A stretch of DNA of 64,000 nucleotides from Solirubrobacterales bacterium (GTDB lineage Bacteria > Actinomycetota > Thermoleophilia > Solirubrobacterales > 70-9). The stretch covers positions 3,843-67,842 of the forward strand of contig DAIQOT010000001.1 in assembly GCA_036787695.1 (NCBI GenBank). Reading direction: 5' to 3'. Below, in pieces: positions 427 through 37,647 of the stretch. The position numbers and the translations under genes were made by a program. The notes under the pieces were generated by a model. It was not told where the DNA came from. It saw only the letters and a list, made by a program, of their open reading frames with translations, and searched no databases. The number at the start of each line of letters is the position of its first letter. Position 1 is the stretch's first letter.

Positions 427-1551
427 CTAGACGACCAAGGGCTCGGGGGAGGCGATCAGGCCTCGGGAGCGGAGGACCGGGATGAGGCCCTCGCCTACTC
501 GGTAGGCCTCCTCCAGGTGGGGGTAGCCGGAGAGGATGAACTCGTCGATGCCCAGGTCGTGGTACTCGGCGATGCGGTCTGCCACTTCGTCGTGACTGCC
601 GACCAGGGCGGTGCCGGCGCCGCCTCGGACCAGGCCGATGCCGGCCCAGAGGTTGGGGGAGACCTCGAGGTTGTCGGTGCGGCCGTTGTGGAGGGCGCGC
701 ATCCTTCGCTGGCCCTCGGATTCGCTCGCCGCCTGGATCGACTGGGCCTTGGCGATCTGCTCGGGGCTGAGGCCGGCGAGGAGGCGGTCGGCGACCTCCC
801 AGGCCTCGTCGGCCGTGTCGCGAGTGATGACGTGGAGGCGGATGCCGAAACCGAGCTCGCGCTCCTCGCGATCGGCCGCCTCCCTCACGGTGTCGAGCTT
901 CGCCGCGACCGCCTCCGGCGGCTCGCCCCAGGTGAGGAAGACATCAGCCCTTCGGGCCGCGACTTCGATCGCCGCCGCCGATGAGCCGCCCAGGTACACC
1001 GTCGGCCAGGCGGGCGGGTCGAGCAGCCTCGCGTCCTCGATCTCGAACCACTCGCCGGAGAAGTTGACCTCCTCCCCGCTCCAGAGCTCTCGCACCACGG
1101 CGAGGAACTCGTCGGCGCGGGCGTAGCGCGAGCCCTTGCCGATCGTGTCGCCGTAGCGGCGCTGCTCGACGGCGTCGCCTCCGACGACCACATTGAGGAG
1201 GAGTCGGTCGCCGGAGACGCGCTGGTAGGTCGCCGCCGCCTGCGCCGCCAGGGTGGGCGACTGGAGCCCGGGCCGGAAGGCGACGAGGAACTTGAAGGTG
1301 CTGGTCAGCTGGGAGAGCGCGGCGGTGACGATCCAGGCGTCGTCGCACCAGGAGCTGGTCGGGGTGAGCGCCGCCTCGAAGCCCATCGCCTCGGCGGCGC
1401 GGGCGACCTGCGACATGTAGGCGAGGTCGCCCTTGCGCTCGGTCGCGCCCGCCTGGCCGCGGCCGTCGCGGGCGCCGATCGCGCTGCCGAAGCTCGGGTT
1501 CGTCCGCGAGTCCCCATTGGTCGGCAGGAACCAATGGACGCGGACGCCCAT
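427..1551 (-). CDS. ssuD: FMNH2-dependent alkanesulfonate monooxygenase (SsuD-type LLM), paralog 1
   Basis: 374 aa. The N-terminus (HWFLPTNGDS) and the LNVVVGGD, RYARADEF and SESEGQRRM blocks look typical of SsuD. ATGA start/stop overlap with the upstream reductase gene. Confidence 0.88.
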   Translation of the reverse strand: MGVRVHWFLPTNGDSRTNPSFGSAIGARDGRGQAGATERKGDLAYMSQVARAAEAMGFEAALTPTSSWCDDAWIVTAALSQLTSTFKFLVAFRPGLQSPTLAAQAAATYQRVSGDRLLLNVVVGGDAVEQRRYGDTIGKGSRYARADEFLAVVRELWSGEEVNFSGEWFEIEDARLLDPPAWPTVYLGGSSAAAIEVAARRADVFLTWGEPPEAVAAKLDTVREAADREERELGFGIRLHVITRDTADEAWEVADRLLAGLSPEQIAKAQSIQAASESEGQRRMRALHNGRTDNLEVSPNLWAGIGLVRGGAGTALVGSHDEVADRIAEYHDLGIDEFILSGYPHLEEAYRVGEGLIPVLRSRGLIASPEPLVV

Positions 1552-2168
1552 CAGCCGGCCGCTTTGGTGCGCGGTTTGACCGCTTTGGCGCCGAGCGGGA
1601 GCGGCTCGGCGACCGCGTCCACCCCGTCGAGCGCGGCGGCCGTCGCGGCGACGCCGGTGAAGAGCTGGTCGAGCACCGTCTCGGCGCGCTCGCCGGGGAC
1701 GCCGTCGGTGAAGTCGGTGCCGTTGAGGTAGACGGCGACCGGCGCCACCACCGCGCCGAAGAAGGTGAGGACATCGCGCAGGTGCCGTTCGGCGCCGAGG
1801 AAGTGGTGGTCGGAGGCGCCCATCGCGACGATGCCGACGACCTTCGCCTGCAGCGCCGGGACCGGCGTCAGGTCGATCAGGTTCTTCAGCGACCCGCTCA
1901 GCGAGCCGCGGTAGATCGGCGTCGCGAAGATCACCGCCTTGGCGTTCTCGATCGCCGCGATCGCGTCGGCGGTGTCGTCGTCGAGGTCCGCGGGCGGGGT
2001 GCCGTTGGCGAAGCCGAGGTCGATCGCCCCGAGGTCGATCAGGTCGGCGCTCGTCCCGCGGGCGGCGGCCCGCTCGATCGCTCTGTCGATCGCCCGGTGC
2101 ATGCGCCCCGGAGGCGTGGTCGATCCGAGGATCACGCGGATATCAATGGGGTTCGTGTCAAGCGGCAA
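1551..2168 (-). CDS. NAD(P)H-dependent FMN reductase (SsuE/MsuE-like, FMN_red fold)
   Basis: IRVILGSTTPPG ... AVIFATPIYRGSLSGSLKNLIDL motif. The start is assigned to TTG 2168, which overlaps the stop of the upstream gene. The ORF-track start at 2249 would overlap that gene by 90 nt, and GTG 2135 is an alternative. Confidence 0.72.
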   Translation of the reverse strand: MPLDTNPIDIRVILGSTTPPGRMHRAIDRAIERAAARGTSADLIDLGAIDLGFANGTPPADLDDDTADAIAAIENAKAVIFATPIYRGSLSGSLKNLIDLTPVPALQAKVVGIVAMGASDHHFLGAERHLRDVLTFFGAVVAPVAVYLNGTDFTDGVPGERAETVLDQLFTGVAATAAALDGVDAVAEPLPLGAKAVKPRTKAAG

Positions 2169-3327
2169 GTTCGTCCTCCTCGATGTGGATCTCCGAATAG
2201 GCGCCGCGGTAGAAGAGCAGCGGTTTCGCTCCCGGCTCGCGGTGCTCAAGGTGGTGCGCGAGGCCGACGACGATCTCGTGGTCGCCGGCCGGGTAGATCG
2301 CCTCGACCTCGCAGGCGATCGTCGCCAGCGCGCCCGGCAGCACCGGGACGCCGAGGTCGTGCTCGTGGAACTCGACCTCGTGGGACGCGACGGCGTCGCC
2401 CTTCTTGGCGAAGCGGTCGGAATGCTCGCGCTGCTCGGCGGCGAGGATGTTGATCGCGAAGCGCCCTTCGGCGCGGACCGCGGCCAGCGTCTCCGAGCTG
2501 CGCGCCAGGCAGGCCAGCAGCAGCGGCGGATCGAGCGAGACCGAGGAGATCGCGTTGGCGGTGGTACCGACCGGGGCGCCGCCCTCCCCGCGCGCGGTGA
2601 CGACGGTCACCCCGGTGGCGAAGTGGCCCATCACGTCGCGCATCTTCCGGCCGACCTGGGCGATCTCGGCGGCGGCCTCCGGGGCCGCGGCGCGCCGGTG
2701 CTCGACCACGTCGGAGACGTTGACGATCACCAGGCCGTGGGACTCGGCGAAGCGCTCGAGATCCTGCTCGCGCGCCATGTGGCCGTCGTCGCGCATCAGC
2801 TGGCAGAGGACGGCGCCGCCGCCGAGGCCCGCGGTGCCCGCCAGGTCGACGGCCGCCTCGGTGCGACCGGCGCGCTCGAGGATGCCGCCCGGGCGGGCGC
2901 GCAACGGGAAGACGTGGCCGGGCTGGACGAGGTCGGCCGGGTCGCTCGCCGGATCGATCGCGGCGGCGATCGTGCGGGCGCGGTCGCCGGCGGAGATGCC
3001 GGTGGTGACGCCCTCCTTCGCCTCGATCGAGACCATCGCCGAGTCGCCGAGCGAGGACTGGTTGCCGCGGTTGCCGATCTGCTCGAGCCCGAGCCGGGCG
3101 CAGTGCTCGGTCGAGAGCGCCAGGCAGACGAGGCCGCGGGCCTCGGTCACCAGGAAGTTGATCGCCGCGGCGTCGGCGAACTCGGCGGCGATCAGCAGGT
3201 CGCCCTCGCCCTGGCGCTCGCGGTCGTCGCGCAGCAGGACCATGCGGCCCGCCGCCAGCTCCTCGGTGGCGACCGTGAAGGCGTCGCGCGCGACGGGGAC
3301 GTTCGGGACGAGGTCGAGCGGGTTCAT
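2158..3327 (-). CDS. Fusion protein: RibB-like (DHBP-synthase-like) domain + flavin reductase domain, paralog 1
   Basis: 389 aa from ATG 3327 (GGAGGG Shine-Dalgarno upstream). The N-terminal half carries RQGEGD, GVTTGISAGDR, PGHVFPL and TEAAVDL. The C-terminal half carries GHFATGVTVVT, SVSLDPPLLL and PLLFYRG (HpaC/Flavin_Reduct type). The upstream part of the 572-aa ORF is Arg/Pro-rich and non-coding-like. Confidence 0.85.
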   Translation of the reverse strand: MNPLDLVPNVPVARDAFTVATEELAAGRMVLLRDDRERQGEGDLLIAAEFADAAAINFLVTEARGLVCLALSTEHCARLGLEQIGNRGNQSSLGDSAMVSIEAKEGVTTGISAGDRARTIAAAIDPASDPADLVQPGHVFPLRARPGGILERAGRTEAAVDLAGTAGLGGGAVLCQLMRDDGHMAREQDLERFAESHGLVIVNVSDVVEHRRAAAPEAAAEIAQVGRKMRDVMGHFATGVTVVTARGEGGAPVGTTANAISSVSLDPPLLLACLARSSETLAAVRAEGRFAINILAAEQREHSDRFAKKGDAVASHEVEFHEHDLGVPVLPGALATIACEVEAIYPAGDHEIVVGLAHHLEHREPGAKPLLFYRGAYSEIHIEEDELAA

Positions 3328-3379: not shown

Positions 3380-4840
3380 TCAGGCGGCCTGCCACTTCGT
3401 CGGCCCGGCGGCGAACGGGCGCAGCTCGGTCGGCAGCGGCATCTCTTCGGTTTCGCCGGTCCGCACGATCCGCCGGGCGATCGCGCCGGCGTGGTCGCGG
3501 ATCTCGGTGATCCCGATCGCCTCCCACTCGACCCCTTTGCGCACCGCCCCGACGGCGAAGATCCGGTCGGAGGCCAACCCCTCGGAGTCGAGCAGCGCTC
3601 CGTCCTCGGCGACGTCGAGGCCGAGGCCGAGCTCGTCGGCGCGGGCGCGGCCGGCGGCGAGCAGGCCCGCGAGGATCGGCGGCGCCTGTCGGCGGAGGTC
3701 GAAGCCCGCGCCCGTACAGTCGACGATCCGGTCGACCTCGACCATGTCGAGCTCATGGGCGCCGGGCGTGCGCAGGAAGACGCGAGCGCCGCGGCCGTGG
3801 GATTCGAGCGAGACGATCGAGGCGGCGCCGGTTTCGAGGCGCCCGGCGGCGACGAGCGCGTCGTAGCGGTCGGCAACCTCGGGTGCCATGCGGAAGCGGT
3901 GGACGTCCCAGAAGCGCTGGTACTCGGAGAGGAAGCGTTCCTTTTCCTCCAGCTTCAGCGCCTTCCACAGCTGCGGCGTCGCCGGGCGCATCGAGTCGAT
4001 CACGTCGCGCCAGTCGTCGCCCTGGCGGGAGACGCGGCCGACCTGGGCGAGGAAGGCGGCGAGCATCGGCTCGATCGTCCCGGTCTCGGTCGGGACGTGG
4101 AAGCGGCGCACGTTGGTGAGGCCGGGACGATGGCGGCGCGGCACGAGGCCGTGGCGGGAGACGGCGCGGACGCGCGGCCCCTCGCCCTCCTCGCCGAGTG
4201 TCAGCGCGACATCGACCATCGAGAGGCCGCTGCCGACGATCAGCACCGAGCGCTCGCGCCGCGCCTCGTCGAGGGCGCCCGCCGCCCACGGATCGGAGAT
4301 CCAGACGCCGGACTTCTTCAGCTCGGCCGGGACCGTGATCGGGTCGCCCGCCTGCAGCGGGCCGAGCGCGAGGACGACGCGGTCGGCCTCGATCCGCTCG
4401 CCGTCGGCCAGGTTCAGTTCGAGGACCGGATCGGCGGCGCCGGCGCGGACGGCGATCGAGGTGACGTCGCCCTGGACCCGCCGCACCCGCGCGTCGATCG
4501 CCTCGCGTTCGCCGCGGGCGAGCAGGTCACGGAGGTAGGTGGCGTAGAGGCCGCGCGGCAGGAAGGCCTCCTCGGCGACGTCTTCGCCACGCTCGGACAG
4601 CCACTCGTGGAAGTGCTCGGGATGCCCGGAGATCCCGCCCATCCGCACCGCCGGGACGTTCAGCAGGTGGAGCGGATCCTCGGTCCCGTAGGCGACGCCG
4701 GCGCCGAAGCTCCCGTCCCGGTCGATCAGGTCGATCTCGAGGGCGCCGCGTTCTCGGTGCTCGCAGAGCAGGTGGATCGCGACGAGCGCACCGGCGGCCC
4801 CGCCGCCGACGATCGCGACTCTCTGCGCCGGTTCGATCAT
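3380..4840 (-). CDS. FAD/NAD(P)-binding oxidoreductase (PF13454-like), paralog 1
   Basis: Rossmann motif VAIVGGGAAG at the N-terminus and a second dinucleotide motif LIVGSGLSMVD. Start set to ATG 4840 by analogy with the paralog at 30625-32088. GTG 4867 is the ORF-track start. Confidence 0.72.
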   Translation of the reverse strand: MIEPAQRVAIVGGGAAGALVAIHLLCEHRERGALEIDLIDRDGSFGAGVAYGTEDPLHLLNVPAVRMGGISGHPEHFHEWLSERGEDVAEEAFLPRGLYATYLRDLLARGEREAIDARVRRVQGDVTSIAVRAGAADPVLELNLADGERIEADRVVLALGPLQAGDPITVPAELKKSGVWISDPWAAGALDEARRERSVLIVGSGLSMVDVALTLGEEGEGPRVRAVSRHGLVPRRHRPGLTNVRRFHVPTETGTIEPMLAAFLAQVGRVSRQGDDWRDVIDSMRPATPQLWKALKLEEKERFLSEYQRFWDVHRFRMAPEVADRYDALVAAGRLETGAASIVSLESHGRGARVFLRTPGAHELDMVEVDRIVDCTGAGFDLRRQAPPILAGLLAAGRARADELGLGLDVAEDGALLDSEGLASDRIFAVGAVRKGVEWEAIGITEIRDHAGAIARRIVRTGETEEMPLPTELRPFAAGPTKWQAA

Positions 4841-4966: not shown

Positions 4967-6082
4967 TCAGGCGGCGACTTTCTCGCCGGCGCGCTCGCGG
5001 TGCGCCAGCTCCTGCCGCACGATCGGCAGCAGGTCGCGGCCGTAGTCGATCGCGTCGTCGAGCGGGTCGTAGCCGCGGATCAGGATCGTCGAGACGCCGA
5101 TGTCGACGTACTCGAGCAGCGCCTCGGCGACCGTCTCCGGCGAGCCGACCAGGGCGGTCGAGTTGCCCGGCGCGCCGGTCGCCATCGCCAGCGGGGTCCA
5201 CAGCGCCTTGCCGTGGAGCTCACCGCGCTCGGCCGCTTTCAGCTGCCGCTGCGAGCCGCCGGTCGGCGGCGCGTCCTTCAGCGCCCGCCAGCCACGGAAG
5301 TTCTGGCCCTCCTTGATCCGCGCGGTCGTCGTGTCGAGGATCCGGTGCGCGCGCTCCCAGGCGAGCTCGTCGGTGGCGCCGAGGATCGGCCGGAAGGAGA
5401 CGTGGATCCGCGGCGGCTCGGTCCGCCCGGCGGCCTCCGCCTCGGCTTTGATCCGGGCGATCTCCTCGGCGACCTGGTCGACCGGCTGGCCGAAGATCGC
5501 GTAGGTGTCGGCCTCGGCGGCGCCGACCGCGTAGGCGGTCTCCGAGGAGCCACCGAAGGAGATCGGGATCCGCGGCTTCTGGAACGGCTTCATTTCGGCC
5601 GAGTAGCCCTCGAGCTTGTAGAACTCGCCGTCGTAGTCGAACGGCTCCTCGGCGGTCCACGCCAGCTTCAGGATCTGCAGGTACTCGCGGGTGCGGGCGT
5701 AGCGCTGCTCCTTGTCGAGGTAGTCGCCGTCGCGGCGCTGCTCGACCTCGAAGCCGCCGGTGATCGTGTGCAGCGCGGTCCGCCCCTCGTTGAACTGGTC
5801 GAGGGTGGCGAAGGTGCGCGCGGCGACGGTCGGGAAGACGACGCCGGGACGGTGGGCGACGAGGTACTTCAGCCGCTCGGTGTGGGCCGAGGCGTAGGCG
5901 GCGACCTGGAGGCCGTCGGGCGAGCCCGAGCTGTAGCCGATCAGGACTTTGTCGAACCCGCCGTCCTCGTGGGCGCGGGCGAAGCGGCGCACGTACTCGC
6001 GGTCGACCAGCGGGCCGCCTTTGGAGGCGCGCGTCTCGGACTGGTCGAGCGTGGCGATCATGCCGACGAACTCAACTGACAT
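4967..6082 (-). CDS. LLM-class flavin-dependent oxidoreductase, distant SsuD relative
   Basis: 371 aa with HTITGG ... EQRRDGDYLDKEQRYARTREYL and GNSTALVGSPETVAEAL blocks typical of the SsuD-like LLM fold. The start overlaps the upstream ABC ATPase stop by 11 nt. Confidence 0.8.
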   Translation of the reverse strand: MSVEFVGMIATLDQSETRASKGGPLVDREYVRRFARAHEDGGFDKVLIGYSSGSPDGLQVAAYASAHTERLKYLVAHRPGVVFPTVAARTFATLDQFNEGRTALHTITGGFEVEQRRDGDYLDKEQRYARTREYLQILKLAWTAEEPFDYDGEFYKLEGYSAEMKPFQKPRIPISFGGSSETAYAVGAAEADTYAIFGQPVDQVAEEIARIKAEAEAAGRTEPPRIHVSFRPILGATDELAWERAHRILDTTTARIKEGQNFRGWRALKDAPPTGGSQRQLKAAERGELHGKALWTPLAMATGAPGNSTALVGSPETVAEALLEYVDIGVSTILIRGYDPLDDAIDYGRDLLPIVRQELAHRERAGEKVAA

Positions 6083-6878
6083 AGGTGAACTCCTTTATCT
6101 CGGGGACGGCCGCCGCCTCGAGCAGCAACCGCGTGTACTCGTGCTTCGGGGCGGCGAAGATCTCGGCCGTCTTGCCGACCTCGACCACGACCCCCTCGCA
6201 GAGGACCGCGATCCGGTCGGCGAAGCCGGGCATGCTGGCGAGGTCGTGCGAGATGACGACCATCGAGGTGCCGGTCTCGTCGCGCAGCTTCTGCAGCAGC
6301 GACAGGATCGCGGCGCGGCTGGAGGCGTCGAGGGCGCTGACCGGCTCGTCGCAGATCAAGAGCTTCGGCTCCGGCACGAGGGCGCGGGCGATCGCCACGC
6401 GCTGACGCTGGCCGCCGGAGATCCGCCCCGGCCGGCGGTCGAGCAGCCCGGGATCGAGACCGACCAGCTCGAGCGCCTTGGCGGCCCGGGCGCGGCGCTC
6501 GGCGCGGTCGCCGGTGCCGGCGATCGCGAGGCTCTCGACGATCGTGTCGGCGACGGTGACGGTCGGGTCGAGCGAGCGCAGCGGGTCCTGGAAGACGAGC
6601 TGCATGTTGCCTTCGCGGCGCAGCTTGCGACGGGCGCGGCCGCGCAGCTTGGCGATCTCCTGGCCGTCGAAGACGATGCTGCCGGCGCTCGGCTTGACCA
6701 GTCCCATGACCGTCCGCCCGAGCGTCGTCTTGCCCGAGCCGGTCTCGCCGACGACGGCGACGATCTCGCGCGGCTCGACGTCGAGGTCGACCCCTTTGAG
6801 GACGCCGCGGCCCGCGCCGGGGAAGGCGACCTCGAGGTCGCGGATGCTGAGCAGTGAGCTGCCCTTGTTCTCTGGCAT
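6072..6878 (-). CDS. ABC transporter ATP-binding protein (DppF/OppF-like)
   Basis: Walker [10 protein letters not shown], signature SGGQRQR, Walker B LLICDEP. ATG 6878 overlaps the upstream stop (ATGA). Confidence 0.9.
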
Positions 6879-7753
6879 CAGATTGCCTCCGCTTGCAGCG
6901 CCTGGACGCGACTTGCGACCCCCGATGCGGCGACCAGGCCTTGGGTGTGGGAATGGGTGGGGTTCGCGAGGATCTCCATCGTCGGCCCGGCCTCGACCAC
7001 GTGGCCTTTGTGGAAGACGCAGACGTCGTCGCAGATCGCGGCGATCACGTCGAGGTCGTGGGAGACGAAGAGGACGGCGAGGCCGAGCCGCTCGCGGAGC
7101 TCCCGCAGCAGCGCCAGGATCTCGCCCTGGGTTTTCACGTCGAGCGCGGTGGTCGGCTCGTCGGCGATCAGCAGGTCGGGGTCGCAGGAGATCGCCATCG
7201 CCATCATCACCCGCTGCTGCATGCCGCCGGAGAGGTGGGCCGGGATCTGGTGGTAGACCCGGTCGGGTTCGCGCAGGCCGACCATGTCGAAGAGCTCGAC
7301 CGCGCGGCGCTTGGCCTCCTTGCGGTCCTTGCCGCCCTTGACGCGGAGGAGTTCGGAGAGCTGGCGGCCGACCGACAGCGACGGGTTGAGGTAGGACGCC
7401 GGGTCCTGGAAGACGGCGCCGACGCGGGTGCTGCGGATCTTCCGCCACTGGCGCTCGTCGAAGGCGGCGAGGCCCTGGCCGTCGAACTCGATCGTGCCGC
7501 CGGCCTGGGTGCAGCCGGGCGGCAGGATGCCGAGCACGGCGCGGCAGGTCAGCGTCTTGCCGCTGCCCGATTCGCCGACCAGGCCGAGCGAGCGGCCGCG
7601 GGCGAGGCCGAAGGAGACGCCCTCGACCGTGGTCCGCGTGCCGTCGTCGGTGGGGACGGCGATCGAGAGGTCCTCGACCCGCAGCAGCGGCGCCCGCTCG
7701 GCGACGGCGCTCGCCCCGTTCCCGTTGGTGATGTGTCCGTTCGTCTCAGGCAC
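6878..7753 (-). CDS. ABC transporter ATP-binding protein (DppD/OppD-like)
   Basis: Walker A GESGSGKT, signature LSGGMQQR, Walker [16 protein letters not shown] start overlaps the permease stop. Confidence 0.9.
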
Positions 7754-8654
7754 CTTGGGCTCCCGCCAGCTCGCTGGTCAACAGAGAATCGAGATCGTGC
7801 GCGGGCGCCTCCTGGCCGGTCTCACCGTGGCCGCCGGCGTGGGCGCCGAGGCCGTCGCGGAGACCGTCGGCGACCGCGTTGCAGGCCCAGACCGTGATCG
7901 CGATCGCCAGCCCGGGCCAGATCGCCGCGCTCCAGTCCTGGTAGAGGTACTGGACGTCGGAGGCGAGCATGCCGCCCCAACTCGGCGCCGGCGCCTTCAC
8001 GCCGATGCCGAGGAAGTCGAGGCTGGAGAGGGCGAGGATCGCGTAGCCGAGCGAGGTCGCGCCGGTGACCGCGAGCGTCGGCAGCGCCTTGCTCCAGATG
8101 TGGCGACGGATGACCCAGAAGCGCGAGGCGCCGAAGAGCTGGGCCGCCTCGACGTACTGCTCGGAGGCGAAGCCGAGCGTCTCCGCCCGGGCGATGCGGA
8201 AGAAGCGCGGCGCCAGCAGCACGCCGACGGCGAGGACCACGGCGCCGGTCCCGTTGGAGAAGAGGCCGGTCGCGGCGACCGCGAGGACGATGATCGGCAG
8301 GGTCAGCAGCGAGTCGACGAAGCGCATGACGAAGAACTCCGAGGTGCGCCCGAGGAAGGCCGAGAGGATCCCCGGCACGGCCCCGATCAGGAAGCCGAGC
8401 AAGACCGTGGCGAGCGAGCCGAGAACCGTCACCCGGGTGCCGGCGATCAGCCGGCTGAGGGTGTCGCGGCCGAGGTAGTCGGTCCCCAGCAGATTGCCGG
8501 AGCTCGGGCCCTGGAAGTGGTTGGGGACGTTCTGCGCCAGCGGATCGTTCGGGGCCAGGAGGCCGCCGGTGATCGTCAGGATCAGGACGACGAAGAGGAC
8601 GAAGGCGGCGACCTTGGTCGAGGGCGAGGCGAAGACGCGACGGACGGTATTCAC
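7746..8654 (-). CDS. ABC transporter permease (DppC/OppC-like)
   Basis: Multi-TM protein with the LGTDYLGRD N-terminal motif and a BPD-transport EAA-like loop (EAAQLFGASR). GTG 8654 overlaps the upstream stop (GTGA). Confidence 0.85.
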   Translation of the reverse strand: MNTVRRVFASPSTKVAAFVLFVVLILTITGGLLAPNDPLAQNVPNHFQGPSSGNLLGTDYLGRDTLSRLIAGTRVTVLGSLATVLLGFLIGAVPGILSAFLGRTSEFFVMRFVDSLLTLPIIVLAVAATGLFSNGTGAVVLAVGVLLAPRFFRIARAETLGFASEQYVEAAQLFGASRFWVIRRHIWSKALPTLAVTGATSLGYAILALSSLDFLGIGVKAPAPSWGGMLASDVQYLYQDWSAAIWPGLAIAITVWACNAVADGLRDGLGAHAGGHGETGQEAPAHDLDSLLTSELAGAQGA

Positions 8655-9694
8655 GAGTGGGTCCTCCGGGTCGCGGGACGAAGCCAGCCGAGCAGGGCAT
8701 CGATGCCGAGGTTGCAGATCAGGACGATCGCCACCATCACCAGGAGCACACCCTGGATGACGGGGAGGTCGTGCTCCTGCGCCGCGGTCAGCGCCAGCTG
8801 GCCGAGGCCGGGCAGGGCGAAGAGCGCCTCGGTGACGACCGCGGCGCCGAGCAGCTGCGGGATCTCGAGGCCGATGATCGTGACGGTCGGCGCCAGGGCG
8901 TTGCGCAGGACGTGCCGATAGAGGATCCGGCGCGGCGAGAGGCCGCGGACCGTCGCCCCGACGACGAAGTTTTCGTCCAGCGCCGCGACCAGCGAGTTGC
9001 GCAGCAGTCGGGAGACCACCGCGGCGACGCCGACGGCGAGCGCGAAGGCGGGCAGGAGGAGGTGGCTGAGCCACGCCCAGAGGCCCGCCGACGGCGGCAC
9101 GTAACCGGTCGCCGGCAGCCACTTCGCCTTCACCGCGAAGACGATCACCAGCACCATCCCGATCCAGAAGACCGGCAGGGTGATCGCGGTCGATGAGACC
9201 GCGTTGATGGCGCGGTCGAGGAAGCCGCCGCGCCGGGTCCCGGCGACGATGCCGGCCGGGATGCCCATCAGCAGCGCCATGACCAGCGCCACGCCGGTGA
9301 CCGAGAGATCGACCGGCAACCCGGTGGCGATGCTCTTGCCGACCGGCACCCCGGTGAACCAGGAGACGCCGAAGTCACCGTGGATCGCGTTCCCGATCCA
9401 GCTGAAGTACTGGGCGAAGAAGCCGCGGTCGAGGCCCATCGCGTGGTTCAGGTGGGCGATCGCCGCCGGGGTTGCGTTTTCGCCCAGTTTCGTCGCCGCC
9501 GGGTTGGACGGCGAGAAGTAGGCGAGGGCGAAGATCAGCAGCGTGCTGAACAGCGCCACGGTCAGGGTGCTGAGCAGGATCTGGCCGATCCGGCCAGACA
9601 CCGCCGGCGCCAGCTTTCCGAGGGACCCGAGGGGACCTCGCCGTTCATAGGACGGCGAGGTCCGGGTCCCGACACTGATGCGTCCGGCCTCCAT
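8651..9694 (-). CDS. ABC transporter permease (DppB/OppB-like)
   Basis: 347 aa, multi-TM, with typical DppB-like blocks (GLDRGFFAQY, TVRGLSPRRILYRHVLRNAL). Confidence 0.85.
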   Translation of the reverse strand: MEAGRISVGTRTSPSYERRGPLGSLGKLAPAVSGRIGQILLSTLTVALFSTLLIFALAYFSPSNPAATKLGENATPAAIAHLNHAMGLDRGFFAQYFSWIGNAIHGDFGVSWFTGVPVGKSIATGLPVDLSVTGVALVMALLMGIPAGIVAGTRRGGFLDRAINAVSSTAITLPVFWIGMVLVIVFAVKAKWLPATGYVPPSAGLWAWLSHLLLPAFALAVGVAAVVSRLLRNSLVAALDENFVVGATVRGLSPRRILYRHVLRNALAPTVTIIGLEIPQLLGAAVVTEALFALPGLGQLALTAAQEHDLPVIQGVLLVMVAIVLICNLGIDALLGWLRPATRRTHS

Positions 9695-9716
9695 GTCGAT
9701 CCCTTCCGCGACTCTC

Positions 9717-11417
9717 CTATTCGGAGAGCCGCACCCCCTCGAGACGCGGGGTCTCGATCCAGGGCTTGAGGCCGGTCACCGAGGAGCTGTGCGCGAGCAG
9801 GAACGGCTGCGTGAACAGCATGATGTTGGCGCTCTGTTCGGTGGCGAGTTTGGTCGCTTCCTGCAGCGCCGCTTCGTACTGCGGGGTGCCGATTTCGAAG
9901 GTCGCGACGGCGTCCAGAGCTTTGGTCAGTTCCGGGCTGGCGTCGCGGCCGGGGTTCAGCAACCCGTCGGCGGCGTACTGGGTTTCGAGCATCTGCGAGG
10001 GAGCCTCGCGACCGACGATCCCGTTCGGGTTGAATTCGACGTTGTGTTTGACGTAGACGTCTTCGGCGGCCTGCGCCGAGGGCAGCGATTTGATCGTCGA
10101 CTTGATCCCGACTTCTTCCAGCTCGGCCTGGAGCTGTTCGCTCTCCGACTGGAAGTTGACGCCGGCGCCGGCGAACCAGGTGATCGTGATCGGGGTGCCG
10201 TCGTATTTCGTTTCACCGAGCAGCGCTTCGGCTTTTTCGGGGTTGTATTCGTAGTAGTCGGCGACTTCTTCGTTGTAGGCGCTGTAGCCGGGGGCGAAGG
10301 CCTCGTCGTCGACTTCACCGTGACCGCCGGCGAGCGTCTGCAGCAGGGTTTCGCGGTCGATCGCGTAGTTGACGGCTTCGACGAATTTGTGTTCGGTGAA
10401 CGGGCCCATCTTGTCGTTGACCTCGATCGAGGCGACGTGGAGGCTGGGGAATTCTTCGACTTCGAAGCCCGCCGATTCCGCGGTCGAGACCTGTTCCCCG
10501 CCGATGTTCGCGAGCTGCACCTGGTTACTGAGCAGCGAGGAGAGGAGCGCCTGTTCGTCGGTGAAGAATTTGAGGTCGACACCTTCGAGGTGGATGTCTT
10601 TGGCGTCCCAGTAGCCCGGGTTGCGGACCAGCGTCGCCGAGGTCGGCGCGGTGTAGTTGGTCAGTTCGAACGGCCCGGCGCCGACCGGCTGGGTGGCGAG
10701 GCCTTTCTCGTTTTCCTTGATCGCTTTCGGGCTGACCATCATCCCGACCTTGCCGCCGAGCACCAGGGGCAGGACGTAGTCCTTGGTTTTCAGCGAGAGC
10801 GTGAGCTGGGTCGGGCTGTCGACCTTGATCGACTTGATCACTTCGAGGTAAGGGATGATCAGCGAGTCGGACTCGTGCTCACCGCGTTCGAGGTTGATTT
10901 TCACCGCTTCGGCGTCGACCGGCGTGCCGTCGGTGAATTTCAGGCCTTTCTTCAGGTCGATGGTGAAGGTGAGGCCGTCTTTGGAGAAGTCCCATTTTTC
11001 GGCGAGCGCCGGTTCGGCTTCGCCTTCCGGGCTGAGCCGGGTGAGCGAGGCGTAGACGAGGCTGAGGTCGGAGACGTCGTTGCCGGCGGCGGAGACGACC
11101 GGGTCCCAGGCGGTGGGGCCGGCGGTCGACCAGCCGAGCGTGCCGCTCGGGGGGCCGCCTTCTTCTTCGGAGGTGTCGGCGGCGGTCGTCTGGCTTTCGC
11201 TGCCGCTACCGCTGCCGTTGGTGTCGGCGCTGGTGCTGCCGCCCGAGCTCGACGAGCTGGAGCTGCTGCCACCGCAACCGGCGAGGACCGCGGCGCCGAG
11301 GACGGCGGCGATCAGCATCGCCGCGACGAGGCGGAGTGGACGTCGACGCGCGGGGGGTCCCGACAGCGACGTGGAGGCTGACGGGATCTCTTGGGACTGC
11401 TTCTGGGGTTCGGCCAT
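9717..11417 (-). CDS. ABC transporter substrate-binding lipoprotein, family 5 (peptide/nickel/opine type)
   Basis: 566 aa. Signal peptide with lipobox LAGC, followed by a Ser/Gly-rich linker. Overall SBP_bac_5-like sequence. Confidence 0.88.
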   Translation of the reverse strand: MAEPQKQSQEIPSASTSLSGPPARRRPLRLVAAMLIAAVLGAAVLAGCGGSSSSSSSSGGSTSADTNGSGSGSESQTTAADTSEEEGGPPSGTLGWSTAGPTAWDPVVSAAGNDVSDLSLVYASLTRLSPEGEAEPALAEKWDFSKDGLTFTIDLKKGLKFTDGTPVDAEAVKINLERGEHESDSLIIPYLEVIKSIKVDSPTQLTLSLKTKDYVLPLVLGGKVGMMVSPKAIKENEKGLATQPVGAGPFELTNYTAPTSATLVRNPGYWDAKDIHLEGVDLKFFTDEQALLSSLLSNQVQLANIGGEQVSTAESAGFEVEEFPSLHVASIEVNDKMGPFTEHKFVEAVNYAIDRETLLQTLAGGHGEVDDEAFAPGYSAYNEEVADYYEYNPEKAEALLGETKYDGTPITITWFAGAGVNFQSESEQLQAELEEVGIKSTIKSLPSAQAAEDVYVKHNVEFNPNGIVGREAPSQMLETQYAADGLLNPGRDASPELTKALDAVATFEIGTPQYEAALQEATKLATEQSANIMLFTQPFLLAHSSSVTGLKPWIETPRLEGVRLSE

Positions 11418-27268: not shown

Positions 27269-28654
27269 CTAGGCCGCTACGGGAGCGGGCGCGGCATCGG
27301 TGAAAGCACCGCGGTACTGGGCGGCGGGGTGACGCTCGGTGAGGCGGTCGTGGCCGAAGAGCTTGTTCCGCAGCGTGCCCTCGCGGTAGCCGTCGGCGGC
27401 GAGGCCGCGCTCGCGTAGCGTCGGCATCACGTGGTCGATGAAGTCCTGGTAGCTGCCGGGGATCACCGCGTTGATCACGTTGACCCCGTCCACCCCGGCC
27501 TCGCGGTACTCGGCCAGCCGGTCGGCGATCTGCTCGGGGGTGCCGACGACGCGGGTGCGGCGGCTCATCAGGTGCATCACGTCGCGCACCGTCGGGTCGC
27601 CGCCGCCGGCCGCCTCGCGCAGCCACTGGAGGATGCCCTGGACGCCTTCGGTCGAGACCGCGTCGAGCGAGTCGTCGGGGTCGAGGCCGCCGAGGTCGAC
27701 GCCGATCGCTCCGCCCATGTGGGCGACCATCCCGTCGACGTCGATCTTCTCTTCGAGCTCGCGCTCGTTGCGCAGCGCCTCCTCCTCGGTCGAGCCGACA
27801 ACGAACGAGAGGCCCTGGAAGAACTTGATTTCGTCGCGCGTCCGCCCGTGCTTCTCGAGCAGGTCCCGCGTCTCGGTGATCTGCCTCCGCGCGTCGTCAG
27901 TTGAGGGGCTCTGGATGAACTGCGCCTCGGCGTGGCGGGCGCAGAAATCGCGGCCGACCGGCGAGGAGCCGGCCTGGAAGAGCAGCGGCGTGCGCTGCGG
28001 CGACGGCGTCACCAGGAACGGGCCCTCGCACTTGAAGTGCTCGCCGACGTGGTTGATCGGGTGGATCTTCGAGGGGTCGGCGTGGAAGCCCGACTCGCGG
28101 TCGGCGAGCAGCGCGTCCTCGTCCCACGATCCCTCCCACAGCTTGTAGAGGACTTCGAGGTACTCGTCGGCGATCGCGTAGCGGGTGTCGTGGGCGGGCA
28201 TCCCCTCCCAGCCGAGGTTGCGCCAGCCGTTCGGGTTCGCCCCGGTGACGATGTTCCAGGCGATCCGCCCGCGCGTCGCGTGGTCGAGCGTCGCCATCTG
28301 GCGGGCGAACTGGAAGGGCGGCGACTGGGCGAAGCCGAGGGTGACCGCGAGGCCGAGGTTCTTCGTCGCCGCGGCGAGCGCCGAGATGATCACCATCGGG
28401 TCGTTGGAGGGGATCTGCAGGCCGAGCTCCTCGTGGAACTCGGGGCCGCCGCGGAAGTCCGGGTAGAGGCCGATCACGTCGGCGAAGAAGGCCGCGTCGA
28501 AGCCGCCCGCCTCGAGTCGCTGGGCGAGGTCGATCCACATCTCGAGCTCGTTGAAGCGCAGCTGGTTGCCCTCGGGGTCGCGCCAGAGCCCGTGGATGAT
28601 GTGGGACGGCGTGTTCATCACGAAGGCGCAGAAGTTCAGTGGCTGGTCGTTCAT
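27269..28654 (-). CDS. LLM flavin monooxygenase, DszA/NtaA family
   Basis: 461 aa with NFCAFVMNTPSHIIHGLW, GRIAWNIVTG and TPLLFQAGSSPVGRDF blocks. Confidence 0.85.
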   Translation of the reverse strand: MNDQPLNFCAFVMNTPSHIIHGLWRDPEGNQLRFNELEMWIDLAQRLEAGGFDAAFFADVIGLYPDFRGGPEFHEELGLQIPSNDPMVIISALAAATKNLGLAVTLGFAQSPPFQFARQMATLDHATRGRIAWNIVTGANPNGWRNLGWEGMPAHDTRYAIADEYLEVLYKLWEGSWDEDALLADRESGFHADPSKIHPINHVGEHFKCEGPFLVTPSPQRTPLLFQAGSSPVGRDFCARHAEAQFIQSPSTDDARRQITETRDLLEKHGRTRDEIKFFQGLSFVVGSTEEEALRNERELEEKIDVDGMVAHMGGAIGVDLGGLDPDDSLDAVSTEGVQGILQWLREAAGGGDPTVRDVMHLMSRRTRVVGTPEQIADRLAEYREAGVDGVNVINAVIPGSYQDFIDHVMPTLRERGLAADGYREGTLRNKLFGHDRLTERHPAAQYRGAFTDAAPAPVAA

Positions 28655-28723
28655 GGGGGTGCTCCTATGGGGTGGGGAGAGTCGGACTAGCCGGGTGAAG
28701 CTGGTGAAGCGGGACGGCTTGGG

Positions 28724-29401
28724 TCAGGCGGCGAGGACTGTCGCGGCGCGCTGCGCGGCCTCGGTGCGGTTGCGGACGCCGAGCTTGCGATAGAGCGCGG
28801 TGGCGCTCTTCTTGACGCTGTCGGGGCCGAGGTGGAGGCGCTCGGCGATCTCGCGGTTGGTCTTGCCGGTGCCGAGCAGGAGCAGGATCTCGCGCTCGCG
28901 GTCGGAGAGGTCGAGGCCGCCGGCGGGGGCGGTGACCGGCAGGTCGAGCGGCTCGCCGGAGAGCACCGCGGCGCGGACCGAGTCGATCACTTCCTCGCCG
29001 GAGACGCCGGCGGGGAGGAAGCCGATCGCGCCGAGGCTGGCGGGCGTCGCCCCGGGTGTGGTGCGGCAGCGCGAGGTGAGCAGGATCTGCACGCCCGGGT
29101 GGGCCTCGCGGATCGCCGCCGTGATCGAGCCGGCGAAGGGGCCGATCTGGGAGATGTCAAGGATCGCCACGTCGGGCCGGTGGCGTCGGGTCAGCGTCAC
29201 CGATTCGGTGCTGTCGGCGGCGAGCAGGCAGCGTTCGATCCACGGCTGCTCGTCGAGGAGGGCGGCGAGGCCGATCCGGCTGGGCGCATGGGCGTCGATC
29301 ACGATCGCCCGGACCGAGGCGTCGGGGAGCGCGTCGGCGTCATCGAGCGGGGGCACGGCGGCGAGCGGTGGGGTCGGCAGATCGAGTTCGGCGGTCGGCA
29401 T
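28724..29401 (-). CDS. LuxR/NarL-type response-regulator-like protein with atypical receiver domain
   Basis: The C-terminal HTH (LSDREREILLLLGTGKTNREIAERLHLGPDSVKKSATALYRKLGV) is LuxR-type. The N-terminal receiver-like domain reads IVIDAH and DVAILDIS. Start taken as ATG 29401. TTG 29413 is the ORF-track start. Confidence 0.75.
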   Translation of the reverse strand: MPTAELDLPTPPLAAVPPLDDADALPDASVRAIVIDAHAPSRIGLAALLDEQPWIERCLLAADSTESVTLTRRHRPDVAILDISQIGPFAGSITAAIREAHPGVQILLTSRCRTTPGATPASLGAIGFLPAGVSGEEVIDSVRAAVLSGEPLDLPVTAPAGGLDLSDREREILLLLGTGKTNREIAERLHLGPDSVKKSATALYRKLGVRNRTEAAQRAATVLAA

Positions 29402-29402
29402 C

Positions 29403-30572
29403 TCAAGCGGCAAGATCGTCCTCCTCGATCTGGATCTGGCTGTAGGAGCCGCGGTAGAAGAGCAGCGGCTTGGCGCCCGGCTCGCGGTGCTCGAGGTGCT
29501 GGGCGAAGCCGACGACGATCTCGTGGTCGCCCGCCGGGTAGATCGACTGGACGTCGCAGGCGATCGTCGCCAGCGCCCCCGGGATCGTCGGCACGCCGAG
29601 GTCGTGGTCGTTGAACTCGACCTCGTGGGAGCGGACGGCGTCGCCCTTCTTGGCGAAGCGGTCGGAGTGGTGGCGCTGCTCGTCGGCGAGGATGTTGATC
29701 GCGAGACGGCCCGTCTCGCGGATCGCCGCCAGGGTCTCGGAGTTGCGCGCCAGGCAGGCGAGCAGCAGCGGCGGGTCGAGCGACACCGAGGAGATCGCGT
29801 TGGCCGTCGTGCCGACCGGCTTGCCGTCGCCGTCGCGCGCGGTGATCACCGAGACGCCGGTGGCGAAGTGGCCCATCACGTCGCGCATCAGCCGGCCGGT
29901 CTTGGCGATCTCGGCGGCGGCCGCGGGAGCCGCGGCGCGGACGTGCCGGGCGACGTCGGAGACGTCGAGGATCGCGAGGCCGTGGCGGGTGGCGAAGACC
30001 TCGAGGTCCTCCCCGGTCGCCATGTGGCCGTCCTCCCTCATCACCTGGCAGAGGACGCCGGCGCCGCGGAGACCGGCGACGCCGGTCAGCTCGACCGCCG
30101 CCTCGGTGCGGCCGGCGCGCTCGAGGATCCCGCCGGGACGCGCCCGCAGGGGGAAGATGTGTCCGGGCACGACGAGGTCGGCGGGGCCGCTCGCCGGGTC
30201 GGCGGCGACGGCGATCGTGCGGGCGCGGTCGCCGGCCGAGATGCCGGTGGTGACGCCCTCCTTCGCCTCGATCGAGACCATCGCCGAGTCGCCGAGGCTC
30301 GACTGGTTGCCGCGGTTGCCGATCTGCTCGAGGCCGAGTTCGACACAGCGCTCGGTCGAGAGCGCGACGCAGACGAGGCCGCGCGCCTCGGTGACCATGA
30401 AGTTGACCGCGTCGGCGTCGGCGAACTCGGCGGCGATGAGGAGGTCCCCCTCCCCCTGGCGCTCTGAGTCGTCGCGCAGCAGGACCATGCGGCCCGCGGC
30501 GAGCTCGTCGGTGGCGAGGGTGAAGGCGTCGGGCGCGGCGGGGATGTCGGGAACGAGGTCGAGCGGGTTCAT
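29403..30572 (-). CDS. Fusion protein: RibB-like domain + flavin reductase domain, paralog 2
   Basis: Same 1170-nt length as 2158-3327 when started at ATG 30572 (GGAGAA Shine-Dalgarno upstream). Same motif set (RQGEGD, PGHIFPL, AGRTEAAVEL, GHFATGVSVIT). Confidence 0.85.
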   Translation of the reverse strand: MNPLDLVPDIPAAPDAFTLATDELAAGRMVLLRDDSERQGEGDLLIAAEFADADAVNFMVTEARGLVCVALSTERCVELGLEQIGNRGNQSSLGDSAMVSIEAKEGVTTGISAGDRARTIAVAADPASGPADLVVPGHIFPLRARPGGILERAGRTEAAVELTGVAGLRGAGVLCQVMREDGHMATGEDLEVFATRHGLAILDVSDVARHVRAAAPAAAAEIAKTGRLMRDVMGHFATGVSVITARDGDGKPVGTTANAISSVSLDPPLLLACLARNSETLAAIRETGRLAINILADEQRHHSDRFAKKGDAVRSHEVEFNDHDLGVPTIPGALATIACDVQSIYPAGDHEIVVGFAQHLEHREPGAKPLLFYRGSYSQIQIEEDDLAA

Positions 30573-30624: not shown

Positions 30625-32088
30625 TCACGCGGCCTCCCACTCGGTGGGAGAGCCGACCGAGTGCAGGCGGGTCGGCAGCGGGATCTCCTCGGTTTCGCCG
30701 GTGCGGACGATCTTGCGGGCGACGGCGCCGGAGTGGTCGCGGATCTCGGTGATCCCGATCGCCTCCCACTCGACGCCGCGGCGGAGGCTGCCGATCGCGA
30801 AGAGGCGTTCGGAGGGGTTGCCCTCGCGGTCGAGCAGCGCGCCGTGGTCGTCGACGTCGACGCCGAGGCCGAGGTCGTCGGGACGGGCGCGCCCCGCGCT
30901 GAGCAGCCCGGCGAGGACCGGCGGCGCCTGCCGGCGCAGGTCGTAGCCGGCGCCGGCGCAGTTGAGCACCCGGTCGACTTCGACCGACTCCAGCTCGTGG
31001 GCTCCGGGCTTGCGGAGGAAGACGCGGGCGCGGGAGCCGTGCGGCTCGACCGAGACGATCGAGGCGGCCCCGGTCTCCAGTCGCCCGCCGGCGACGAGCG
31101 CCTCGTAGCGGTCGGAAACCTCGGGCGCCATGCGGAAGCGGTGGACGTCCCAGAGACGCTGGTACTCGGTGAGGAACCGTTCCTTTTCGGTCAGCGACAA
31201 CGCCTTCCAGAGCGCCGGCGTCGCCGGCCGCATCGAGTCGATCACGTCGCGCCAGTCGTCGCCCTGCTGGGCGACGCGGCAGATCTGGGCGAAGATCGCG
31301 CCGACCATCGGCTCGACCGTCCCGGTCTCGGTCGGGATGTGGAAGCGGCGCAGGTTGGTCAGGTCGGTGCGGTGGCGGCGCGGGATCAGGCCGTGGCGGG
31401 AGACCGCGCGGATCCGCGGGCCGTCGGGCGCCTCGCCGAGCGAGAGCGCGACGTCGACCATCGAGAGACCGGTGCCGACGATCAGCACCGAGCGCGAGCG
31501 GCGCGCGTCCTCGAGCGCCCCCGCCTCCCAGGGATCGGCGATCCAGGTGCCCGCGGCCTTCAACTCCGGCGGCACCTCGATCGGGTCGCCGGCGATCAGC
31601 GGGCCGAGCGCCAGGATCACGCGGTCGGCCTCGATCCGCTCGCCGTCGGCGAGGGACAGCTCGAGCGGCGCCGACGCGTTGCCGAAGTGCTCGGCGATCG
31701 CCGTCACCTCGCCGGCGTGGCGGCGCAGGCGGGCGCTCGACGCCTCGCGCTCGGCGGTGGCCAGCAGGTCGCGTATGTAGGTGGCGTAGAGGCCGCGCGG
31801 CAGGAACGCTTCCTCGGCGACCGGTTCGCCGCGCCCGGCGAGCCACTCGTGGAAATGCTCCGGGTGCCCATGGATCGCCCCCATCCGCACGGCGGGGACG
31901 TTCAGCAGGTGGAGCGGGTCCTGGGTGCCGTAGGCGACGCCGCCGCCGAAGCTGCCGGTGCGGTCGATCAGGTCGATCTCCAGCGCCCCGCGTTCGCGGT
32001 GCTCGCGCAGCAGGTGGACGGCGGCGAGCGTCCCGGCGGCCCCGCCGCCGACGATCGCGATGCGCTGGGTGGCCTCGGCCGCGCTCAC
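30625..32088 (-). CDS. FAD/NAD(P)-binding oxidoreductase (PF13454-like), paralog 2
   Basis: 487 aa with IAIVGGGAAG and LIVGTGLSMVD. Collinear with 3380-4840. GTGA overlap with the upstream ssuD-like gene. Confidence 0.72.
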   Translation of the reverse strand: MSAAEATQRIAIVGGGAAGTLAAVHLLREHRERGALEIDLIDRTGSFGGGVAYGTQDPLHLLNVPAVRMGAIHGHPEHFHEWLAGRGEPVAEEAFLPRGLYATYIRDLLATAEREASSARLRRHAGEVTAIAEHFGNASAPLELSLADGERIEADRVILALGPLIAGDPIEVPPELKAAGTWIADPWEAGALEDARRSRSVLIVGTGLSMVDVALSLGEAPDGPRIRAVSRHGLIPRRHRTDLTNLRRFHIPTETGTVEPMVGAIFAQICRVAQQGDDWRDVIDSMRPATPALWKALSLTEKERFLTEYQRLWDVHRFRMAPEVSDRYEALVAGGRLETGAASIVSVEPHGSRARVFLRKPGAHELESVEVDRVLNCAGAGYDLRRQAPPVLAGLLSAGRARPDDLGLGVDVDDHGALLDREGNPSERLFAIGSLRRGVEWEAIGITEIRDHSGAVARKIVRTGETEEIPLPTRLHSVGSPTEWEAA

Positions 32089-33254: not shown

Positions 33255-33281
33255 GGAACTCCTCGCGTCAGTCATCAGAGG

Positions 33282-37147: not shown

Positions 37148-37647
37148 ACCCGCGGATCGAGGACGACGATCGGGATAACCCGCGGGTGGGCACGCTCGCG
37201 GTAGGACTCGTAGCCGGGATAGACGGCAACGAACTCCGCCCAGAGCCGCTCCCGCTCCTCATCGTCGGCAAGGCGAGCGCGCACCGGGAGGACCTCGGCG
37301 CCGACCTGCATCGTCGTCTCGGGATTCGCCATCAGGTTGTGGAACCAGGCCGGGTGGGTCGGCTGGCCCGCCTTCGAGGCGACCACCGCGATCACCTCCC
37401 CATCCCGGCGGTACATCAGCGGCGAGGTTCGGACGATGCCGGTCTTGGCCCCTTTGTGGTCGACCAGCGCGATCTCAGCTCCCGGGAAGCCAGGCACCTT
37501 GCGGCCGAGCCGCCCACCGCTACGCCGGTAGAGGGCGACGTGGACCTTGGTCGAACGCCGGCCGAGGTAGACGCCGCGATCGTTCATCGCATCGGCGACG
37601 GCGAGGTTGAGGCGAGCGTTCAGGGACGGCATGGCCACAATCCTCAC
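37144..37647 (-). CDS. Deazaflavin (F420)-dependent nitroreductase family protein (DDN/PF04075-like)
   Basis: LVDHKGAKTGIVRTSPLMY and AGQPTHPAWFHNLMANP blocks. GTG 37647 overlaps the vsr stop. ATG 37632 is an alternative start. Confidence 0.72.
   Translation of the reverse strand: MRIVAMPSLNARLNLAVADAMNDRGVYLGRRSTKVHVALYRRSGGRLGRKVPGFPGAEIALVDHKGAKTGIVRTSPLMYRRDGEVIAVVASKAGQPTHPAWFHNLMANPETTMQVGAEVLPVRARLADDEERERLWAEFVAVYPGYESYRERAHPRVIPIVVLDPRV

Follow-up and report, generated by a model that had tools for sequence, protein, structure and literature searches.

A flavin reductase carrying a degenerate RibB-derived domain in a monooxygenase-rich Solirubrobacterales locus

What does a domain from riboflavin biosynthesis do once it has apparently lost its catalytic residues and become fused to a flavin reductase? 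The question is raised by a gene, here called q1, in a 64,000-nucleotide stretch of a Solirubrobacterales genome (contig DAIQOT010000001.1, positions 3,843 to 67,842 of the forward strand; hereafter the window). Its product begins with a domain resembling 3,4-dihydroxy-2-butanone-4-phosphate (DHBP) synthase, RibB, and ends in a reductase of the NtaB/HpaC type, and a paralogue of the same architecture, q2, lies 27 kb away. The original prediction for this locus proposed that Gln, Arg and Gln replace three key RibB residues in both copies and that this reflects a maintained, non-canonical function. Here we find that q1 is, by sequence, a short-chain flavin reductase of two domains, one of them recycled from another enzyme. 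Our leading reading, which we hold tentatively, is that q1 and q2 are flavin reductases in which the dead RibB-derived domain would act as a non-catalytic ligand-binding or structural module.

Domain architecture and active-site residues

The features on which the analysis rests are as follows.

2158..3327, minus strand: fusion gene q1, RibB-derived N-domain and NtaB/HpaC-type flavin reductase C-domain (translation, Pfam, PDB matches, AlphaFold2/Foldseek)
2701..3270, minus strand: RibB-like (DHBP_synthase) domain of q1, residues 20-209, with a degenerate active site (Pfam, root-mean-square deviation (rmsd) to RibB structures)
2188..2631, minus strand: Flavin_Reduct domain of q1, residues 233-380, apparently intact (Pfam, likeness to 3nfw, invariant motifs)
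3211..3213, minus strand: q1 codon CAG, Gln39, at the metal ligand Glu38 of Escherichia coli RibB (Glu39 of Vibrio cholerae RibB)
2863..2865, minus strand: q1 codon CGC, Arg155, at the metal ligand His153 of E. coli (His154 of V. cholerae)
2800..2802, minus strand: q1 codon CAG, Gln176, at Glu174 of E. coli
29403..30587, minus strand: q2, paralogue of q1, 394 residues, same architecture (tblastn of the window)
30456..30458, minus strand: q2 codon for Gln44, active site
30108..30110, minus strand: q2 codon for Arg160, active site
30045..30047, minus strand: q2 codon for Gln181, active site

The q1 open reading frame runs from an ATG at 3327 to a stop at 2158-2160 and encodes 389 residues. A Pfam hidden Markov model scan of q1 bore out the predicted fusion, returning DHBP_synthase (PF00926; E 6e-67, profile positions 3-190 of 191) and Flavin_Reduct (PF01613; E 4e-40, profile positions 1-152 of 153) and nothing else; the GTP cyclohydrolase II domain (PF00925) was not found. 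The RibBA models of NCBIfam matched the RibB half of q1 alone, far below their cut-off. TIGR00506, the ribB equivalog domain model, scored 191.1 bits against a cut-off of 177.45, and q1 is labelled a DHBP synthase in databases because of that score. The score accounts for the name and is no test of catalysis.

The best PDB sequence match of q1 is 6MNZ (phmmer, E 3e-58). In an AlphaFold2 model (mean predicted local distance difference test score 81, lid loop 84-96 disordered), the N-domain superposes on RibB crystal structures with an rmsd of 1.6-1.9 Å and a target TM-score of 0.86-0.91 (Foldseek), confirming the RibB fold. The C-domain resembles nitrilotriacetate monooxygenase component B (3nfw; 40% identity by Foldseek, E 2e-31 by phmmer). 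Its S-V-S-L-x-P-P and G-D-H motifs, which we take to bind flavin and NADH, are preserved, with S264, L265, P267, G348, D349 and H350 invariant over 94 aligned relatives. By every sequence test applied, q1 belongs to the PF01613 reductase class; judged by its catalytic residues, it is placed outside the DHBP synthase enzyme family, though it passes the TIGR00506 cut-off.

In V. cholerae RibB, the catalytic metal is coordinated by Glu39 and His154 (PMC9305975). Gapless phmmer alignments with solved RibB chains set V. cholerae Glu39 opposite Gln39 of q1, His154 opposite Arg155, and the Glu of the LCE motif opposite Gln176. Residues were mapped to E. coli RibB, whose numbering is used below, with MAFFT on the excised domains, and the mapping gave E38Q, H153R and E174Q in both q1 and q2. 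The two methods agree on the predicted Gln/Arg/Gln, and neither offered a Glu/His/Glu placement. Retained in both copies are D33, D34, R37, E40, D42, C67, T106, T107, H136, R150, T154 and E155, among them the Cys (C67) and His (H136) that had been singled out as preserved. The paralogue q2 is 82% identical to q1 and was the sole one found by tblastn of the window, which returned no RibB homologue besides these two.

Glu is present at both 38 and 174 in 100% of 127 canonical sequences, and q1 and q2 have Gln at both. Since both protein ligands of the Mg2+ are missing, and Glu174 as well, the N-domain of q1 is very probably no longer a DHBP synthase. The phosphate-binding residues Arg37, Arg150 and Thr154 are present in q1 and q2 and are conserved at 97%, 99% and 83%, respectively, in the clade that shares Arg153 and Gln174 with any residue at 38 (x/Arg/Gln).

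Position 153 also varies elsewhere. Gln stands in for His in 35 of 150 RibB representatives and in many housekeeping RibBA of Thermoleophilia (e.g. surveyed loci L008, L009, L012 and L013), and His is therefore not strictly required there.

Conservation and a graded evolutionary series

Is the altered active site maintained, or simply decaying? All 120 closest database relatives (at least 78% identical) have the two domains of q1, and all 120 carry Arg153 and Gln174; at position 38 they have R, Q, A, H, M, S, K or E. The same freedom is seen over 161 sequences defined by Arg153/Gln174, stand-alone relatives counted in, where position 38 is R in 66, Q in 37, G in 23, A in 22 and other residues in the remainder. 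Gln at 38 is one of many tolerated residues and not a maintained replacement. The argument that identical replacements in two paralogues speak for maintenance accordingly falls away: Arg153 and Gln174 were inherited from a deep clade ancestor and position 38 is hypervariable, so that what q1 and q2 share is not independent evidence. The claim of maintenance itself stands for the N-domain, on conservation in the 161 relatives and on substitution rates.

Conservation was compared between the 127 canonical RibB/RibBA representatives and the 161 x/Arg/Gln sequences. Canonical RibB has about 60 positions with conservation of 90% or more, and the majority of these stay conserved in the x/Arg/Gln set. 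The changes comprise E38 (free), N39G, H153R and E174Q, four positions of the lid loop (M83I, T93D, F95A/S and T96M) and the conservative switches M58L, V147I and D159E. Gly39, Asp93, Met96, Arg153 and Gln174 are fixed or nearly so, and the pocket residues R37, E40, D42, C67, T107, H136, R150 and E155 are 95-100% conserved. Within the window's own clade, pairwise ratios of nonsynonymous to synonymous substitution rates (dN/dS) were 0.19-0.57 for the N-domain and 0.17-0.84 for the C-domain, a comparison between domains rather than an absolute measure, as dS is compressed by the extreme GC content at third codon positions. Pairwise dN of the N-domain is about that of the reductase domain among relatives; the N-domain evolves no faster. 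No frameshifted or truncated N-domain was seen among ~190 fusions, and the degenerate state is kept in relatives down to ~66% identity. The N-domain is maintained under purifying selection and is not decaying.

Such fusions are rare. Among 1.84 billion representatives at 50% identity, about 10 clusters join the two domains, three of them in reverse order. In a survey of one genome per GTDB species, the fusion occurred in 7 of the best 80 loci, all seven in Solirubrobacterales or unclassified Actinomycetes genomes; the q1-type family comes from Solirubrobacterales metagenome genomes. A module of monooxygenase, NAD_binding_9 protein, fusion and FMN_red-type reductase, often with a LuxR gene, is kept down to 55% identity.

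A further search for homologues, started from the distant fusion P0122, gave these states at 38/153/174: Glu/His/Glu, Ala/His/Glu or Asp/His/Glu, Gly/Arg/Glu, x/Arg/Gln, Glu/Gln/Thr and x/Arg/Glu. When the RibB and reductase parts were concatenated and a bootstrapped neighbour-joining tree was rooted on unfused loci, the Glu/His/Glu fusions branched early. Gly/Arg/Glu and x/Arg/Gln form one clade with 100% support, in which x/Arg/Gln is nested within Gly/Arg/Glu with 72-85% support. The Glu/Gln/Thr and x/Arg/Glu groups fall into separate degenerate lineages, and two further lineages have thus apparently degenerated independently.

The loci of the intact members point to where the fusion came from. 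The locus of the intact fusion P0279 holds three monooxygenase genes, NAD_binding_9, the fusion and FMN_red; that of P0280, also intact, reads LysR, fusion, monooxygenase, acyl-CoA-dehydrogenase-like gene, monooxygenase and FMN_red. A complete Solirubrobacteraceae chromosome (L072) matches P0280 gene for gene up to the second monooxygenase, with an intact bifunctional ribBA (PF00926 and PF00925, Glu/His/Glu) and, behind it, an independent PF01613 reductase gene whose product is 55% identical to the q1 C-domain. Altogether, three Solirubrobacteraceae species (L026, L032 and L072; in L072 at 7848-9727) have an intact ribBA paralogue leading into an HpaC-type reductase and monooxygenases. In 57 of the 80 surveyed loci ribH (lumazine synthase) lies directly downstream of ribBA, the housekeeping arrangement, and no ribH match was obtained in any fusion locus or in these three. 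A ribBA paralogue beside a reductase and monooxygenases, with no ribH, suggests a dedicated flavin-supply gene in a monooxygenase operon. The q1 fusion evidently derives from a ribBA paralogue, and the simplest reading of the series runs from separate intact genes through Glu/His/Glu fusions and Gly/Arg/Glu to x/Arg/Gln.

Fusions in reverse order were also seen. Loci L082/L083 (GCA_000308415.1, 2077-3750) encode Flavin_Reduct followed by DHBP_synthase with Glu/His/Glu intact, then GTP cyclohydrolase II in a gene of its own; an independent joining of these two domains in the opposite order has therefore taken place. Another, P0124 (L081, 8001-9179), has Gln/His/Gln at 38/153/174 and adjoins genes for ketoacyl-ACP synthase III (KAS III), acyl carrier protein (ACP), a ketosynthase and a condensation domain, possibly a natural-product cluster.

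Possible roles of the RibB-derived domain

In our proposed explanation, a ribBA paralogue would have been recruited beside a flavin reductase gene, its GTP-cyclohydrolase part lost and its RibB part fused to the reductase. Both protein ligands of Mg2+ would then have been lost, with Glu38 set free to vary and His153 changed to Arg; Glu174 would have become Gln after the metal ligands were gone, and position 38 may have drifted since. The intact-looking C-domain would supply reduced FMN (FMNH2) to the surrounding NtaA/DmoA- and SsuD-type monooxygenases, a straightforward inference, as reductases of this class serve the very monooxygenase families whose genes accompany its own. The N-domain may still bind a pentulose- or pentitol-phosphate-like ligand, with Arg153 in the metal's place, and may organise or regulate the fused reductase in the manner of effector-controlled two-domain reductases. 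A non-catalytic module is favoured because the phosphate site and most pocket residues are conserved and an Arg occupies the metal position.

The functional model that we propose is C1, the reductase of p-hydroxyphenylacetate 3-hydroxylase, in which an appended domain binds an effector and gates NADH oxidation by an HpaC-type reductase (PMC11618861). C1 of Acinetobacter baumannii (5ZC2) resembles q1 in joining an HpaC-type reductase to a domain borrowed from another family. The extra domain of C1, however, is C-terminal, NadR/MarR-like and binds the monooxygenase substrate, whereas that of q1 is N-terminal, RibB-derived and a putative ligand binder. In a more specific form of the proposal, which we consider unlikely as it stands, the RibB pocket would be a metal-free receptor for ribulose 5-phosphate or the ribityl-5'-phosphate tail of FMN/FMNH2. 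Arg153 would serve as the cation, the two carboxylates being neutralised, and occupancy would gate or channel the production of reduced flavin. If this is true, a metabolite-sensing pseudoenzyme governs a two-component monooxygenase system, alongside still-active evolutionary intermediates.

Several points weigh against the non-catalytic module. The loss of DHBP synthase activity is read from residue identity alone, and the catalytic role of Glu174 is assumed by us from the RibB literature; our literature searches found no mutagenesis data for Glu174 or His153. AlphaFold gave the inter-domain geometry of q1 without confidence (predicted TM-score (pTM) 0.56), so that no regulatory interface is visible in the model. 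The trees are distance-based, by neighbour-joining, with several weakly supported internal nodes, and dN/dS carries the compression of dS described above. The q1 operon already encodes a second FMN reductase (PF03358, 1551-2168), so the need for the q1 reductase is not obvious. Finally, constraint is partly relaxed at T154, which is Ile or Val in 17% of the 161 sequences, and at R184, which is Thr in 34%, and a scaffold therefore fits as well as a ligand binder.

A pure scaffold, the alternative that survives best though we rate it as rather doubtful, would bind nothing: the dimer interface of the dead RibB domain would set the oligomeric state of the reductase or dock partners such as the monooxygenases or the NAD_binding_9 protein. 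Homodimers are described for RibB (PMC9305975) and, in work on BorF, for HpaC-type reductases, and such a role agrees with both. It also agrees with the free drift of position 38 and the partial relaxation of T154 and R184, and the apparent loss of catalytic residues in more than one lineage suggests that catalysis is dispensable and the domain is not. Against a scaffold stand the eight pocket residues that are 95-100% conserved over the 161 sequences without an obvious structural role. Gly39, Asp93 and Met96, nearly fixed, likewise give the look of a pocket remodelled and not abandoned.

The same conserved pocket, together with new active-site residues that are fixed or nearly so and purifying selection equal to that on the enzyme domain, could be claimed for a new catalysis, in which Arg153 would be the electrostatic catalyst of a reaction that needs no metal and acts on a sugar phosphate or a compound related to flavins. 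We consider this improbable. The carboxylates at 38 and 174, thought catalytic, are both gone and position 38 is unconstrained; the lid Asp93 is the only new acid or base at a fixed pocket position, and the locus shows no gap in a pathway that such an activity would fill. The new chemistry floated in the original prediction finds no support in our analysis.

It is very unlikely that the domain is still a DHBP synthase, with Arg153 replacing Mg2+ and the protein boosting flavin supply for the monooxygenases. Such an activity would be in keeping with the TIGR00506 score, with the intact ribBA paralogues and Glu/His/Glu fusions that hold the same operon slot in relatives, and with the tolerance of Gln at 153 by canonical Thermoleophilia RibBA. 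Yet the enzyme depends on Mg2+, and q1 and q2 lack both of the protein ligands of that ion. Position 38 is unconstrained (Arg, Gln, Gly or Ala), Glu174 is Gln in every close relative, and four lid-loop positions at least 90% conserved in canonical RibB are altered. A GTP cyclohydrolase II partner and ribH, moreover, were not found near q1 or q2. An ordinary RibB was rejected on the residue tests at 38, 153 and 174.

That the N-domain is a neutral relic heading for deletion, as its lost catalytic residues and free position 38 might suggest, is hardly credible and was rejected on the conservation and dN data, given ~190 fusions without frameshift or truncation, conservation at most of the ~60 canonical positions, N-domain dN like that of the C-domain, and persistence of the degenerate state to ~66% identity.

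Genomic context, related systems and significance

Both fusions lie within arrays of related genes.

427..1551, minus strand: SsuD-like luciferase-like monooxygenase, downstream of the FMN reductase gene (Pfam, NCBIfam)
1551..2168, minus strand: MsuE/SsuE-like NADPH-dependent FMN reductase (PF03358), directly downstream of q1, whose end it overlaps
3380..4840, minus strand: FAD/NAD(P)-binding protein of family NAD_binding_9 (PF13454), uncharacterised, directly upstream of q1 (Pfam)
4967..6082, minus strand: luciferase-like monooxygenase, upstream of the q1-side NAD_binding_9 gene
6072..11417, minus strand: peptide/nickel-type ATP-binding cassette (ABC) transporter, with two ATPases, two permeases and an SBP_bac_5 binding protein (same order in L001)
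27269..29413, minus strand: NtaA/DmoA-family monooxygenase (27269-28654) and LuxR/GerE-type regulator (28724-29413), downstream of q2 (same order in L003)
30625..32088, minus strand: paralogous NAD_binding_9 protein, directly upstream of q2
32085..34688, minus strand: SsuD-like monooxygenase (32085-33275) and NtaA/DmoA-family FMN-dependent monooxygenase (33282-34688), upstream of the q2 module
34869..35783, plus strand: LysR-type regulator, divergent from the q2 cluster

Positions 427 to 34688 carry no fewer than nine luciferase-like monooxygenase genes, in long minus-strand arrays, which bears out the predicted richness in FMNH2-dependent monooxygenases. Two flanking monooxygenases exceed the NtaA/DmoA-family threshold in NCBIfam (TIGR03860, 557.6 bits against a cut-off of 279.7 in the cluster at 32085..34688), and others come near the SsuD models but stay below them; the monooxygenase at 427..1551 scored 439-445 bits with alkanesulfonate monooxygenase models, below their cut-offs. 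The same ~34 kb (427-34688) holds two SBP_bac_5-type ABC transporters. Going by family names only, the locus resembles a cluster for organosulfur scavenging or for scavenging under sulfur starvation.

The NAD_binding_9 proteins ahead of both fusions are ~486 residues each; no NCBIfam family matched this neighbour, and a PDB search gave no meaningful relative. Its adjacency to the fusion is kept in L001, L003-L007 and L084, and L002 has a partial copy where the contig ends. The PF03358 FMN reductase, the window's third reductase gene beside the two fusion copies, also lies downstream of the fusion in L001-L004, L006, L007 and L084. LysR genes flank L072, L084 and L085 as well.

Beyond these arrays, the window encodes a Dcm-type C5 cytosine methylase on the plus strand at 35954-37147 and, close by on the minus strand at 37644-38072, a Vsr mismatch endonuclease, with an F420H2-dependent quinone reductase-like gene between the two (37144-37647). 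Further along are a 1528-residue protein with an SdiA-regulated domain, four lamin-tail domains and collagen triple-helix repeats (40261-44847, minus strand) and a 443-residue protein of the animal haem peroxidase family (PF03098, E 1.5e-22; 49933-51264, minus strand).

How does the fusion compare with known systems? With canonical RibB it shares the fold, ~43% identity and Arg37/Arg150/Thr154, Cys67, His136, Asp42 and Glu40; it differs in lacking Glu38, His153 and Glu174, in its remodelled lid loop, in lying outside a rib operon and in its fusion to a flavin reductase. RibBA and RibBX proteins (Mycobacterium tuberculosis RibA2, 4I14; A. baumannii RibBX, 6MNZ) likewise have two domains with RibB N-terminal, but the partner in q1 is a PF01613 flavin reductase and not GTP cyclohydrolase II. 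In RibBX it is the C-terminal partner domain that is the degenerate half; in q1 the RibB half is degenerate and the partner looks active. M. tuberculosis also has a non-essential paralogue, ribA1 (Rv1940). The short flavin reductases of the NtaB/HpaC class (3NFW, 4XHY, 2ECR) match q1 in its full-length PF01613 domain, 40% identical to 3NFW, and in its setting among NtaA/DmoA-family monooxygenases. Known members of that class, however, are single-domain proteins of ~150-200 residues, to which q1 adds a 220-residue RibB-derived N-terminal extension.

The sulfur-regulated ytmI operon of Bacillus subtilis encodes RibR, in which a riboflavin kinase is joined to an RNA-binding domain that targets the FMN riboswitch. 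The original prediction had likened q1 to RibR as a coupling of flavin supply to sulfur scavenging, and the likeness holds to the extent that both are riboflavin-pathway-derived proteins inside what is, for RibR, a sulfur-scavenging operon of FMNH2-dependent monooxygenases. RibR, however, has no homology to RibB or PF01613, and the q1/q2 window has no FMN riboswitch, as an Rfam scan of it gave zero matches. For the origin of the fusion the analogy works well, since intact ribBA paralogues and Glu/His/Glu fusions occur in the same operons; because both metal ligands are absent, it probably does not describe what the window copies do today.

Our literature searches found no paper on a RibB-flavin reductase fusion or a RibB pseudoenzyme. 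The sole paper found with both Pfam numbers concerns separate fungal genes: the SORBUS cluster for sorbic-acid resistance in Penicillium roqueforti has separate PF01613 and PF00926 genes beside the UbiX/UbiD-type padA and cdcA (PMC9200314). SORBUS is another co-recruitment of the two families to a flavin-demanding pathway.

For annotation, window-type proteins are almost certainly not DHBP synthases, though so named in public sources, and since they pass the NCBIfam ribB model, pathway reconstructions for Thermoleophilia would over-count riboflavin genes. For evolution, they stand at the end of a natural series with unusually few gaps, which starts with intact genes still apart and passes through active-looking fusions and a stepwise loss of metal ligands to a new, fixed set of residues, apparently with independent parallel losses; this graded series therefore offers a convenient system for an enzyme domain turning into a pseudoenzyme after fusion. 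Sensing of a pentose phosphate or a flavin by the dead domain, if it occurs, would represent a new control over the NAD(P)H that two-component flavin monooxygenase systems waste through oxidation. More broadly, monooxygenase operons that contain intact ribBA paralogues or Glu/His/Glu fusions suggest that flavin supply and sulfur scavenging are specifically coupled in Actinomycetota.

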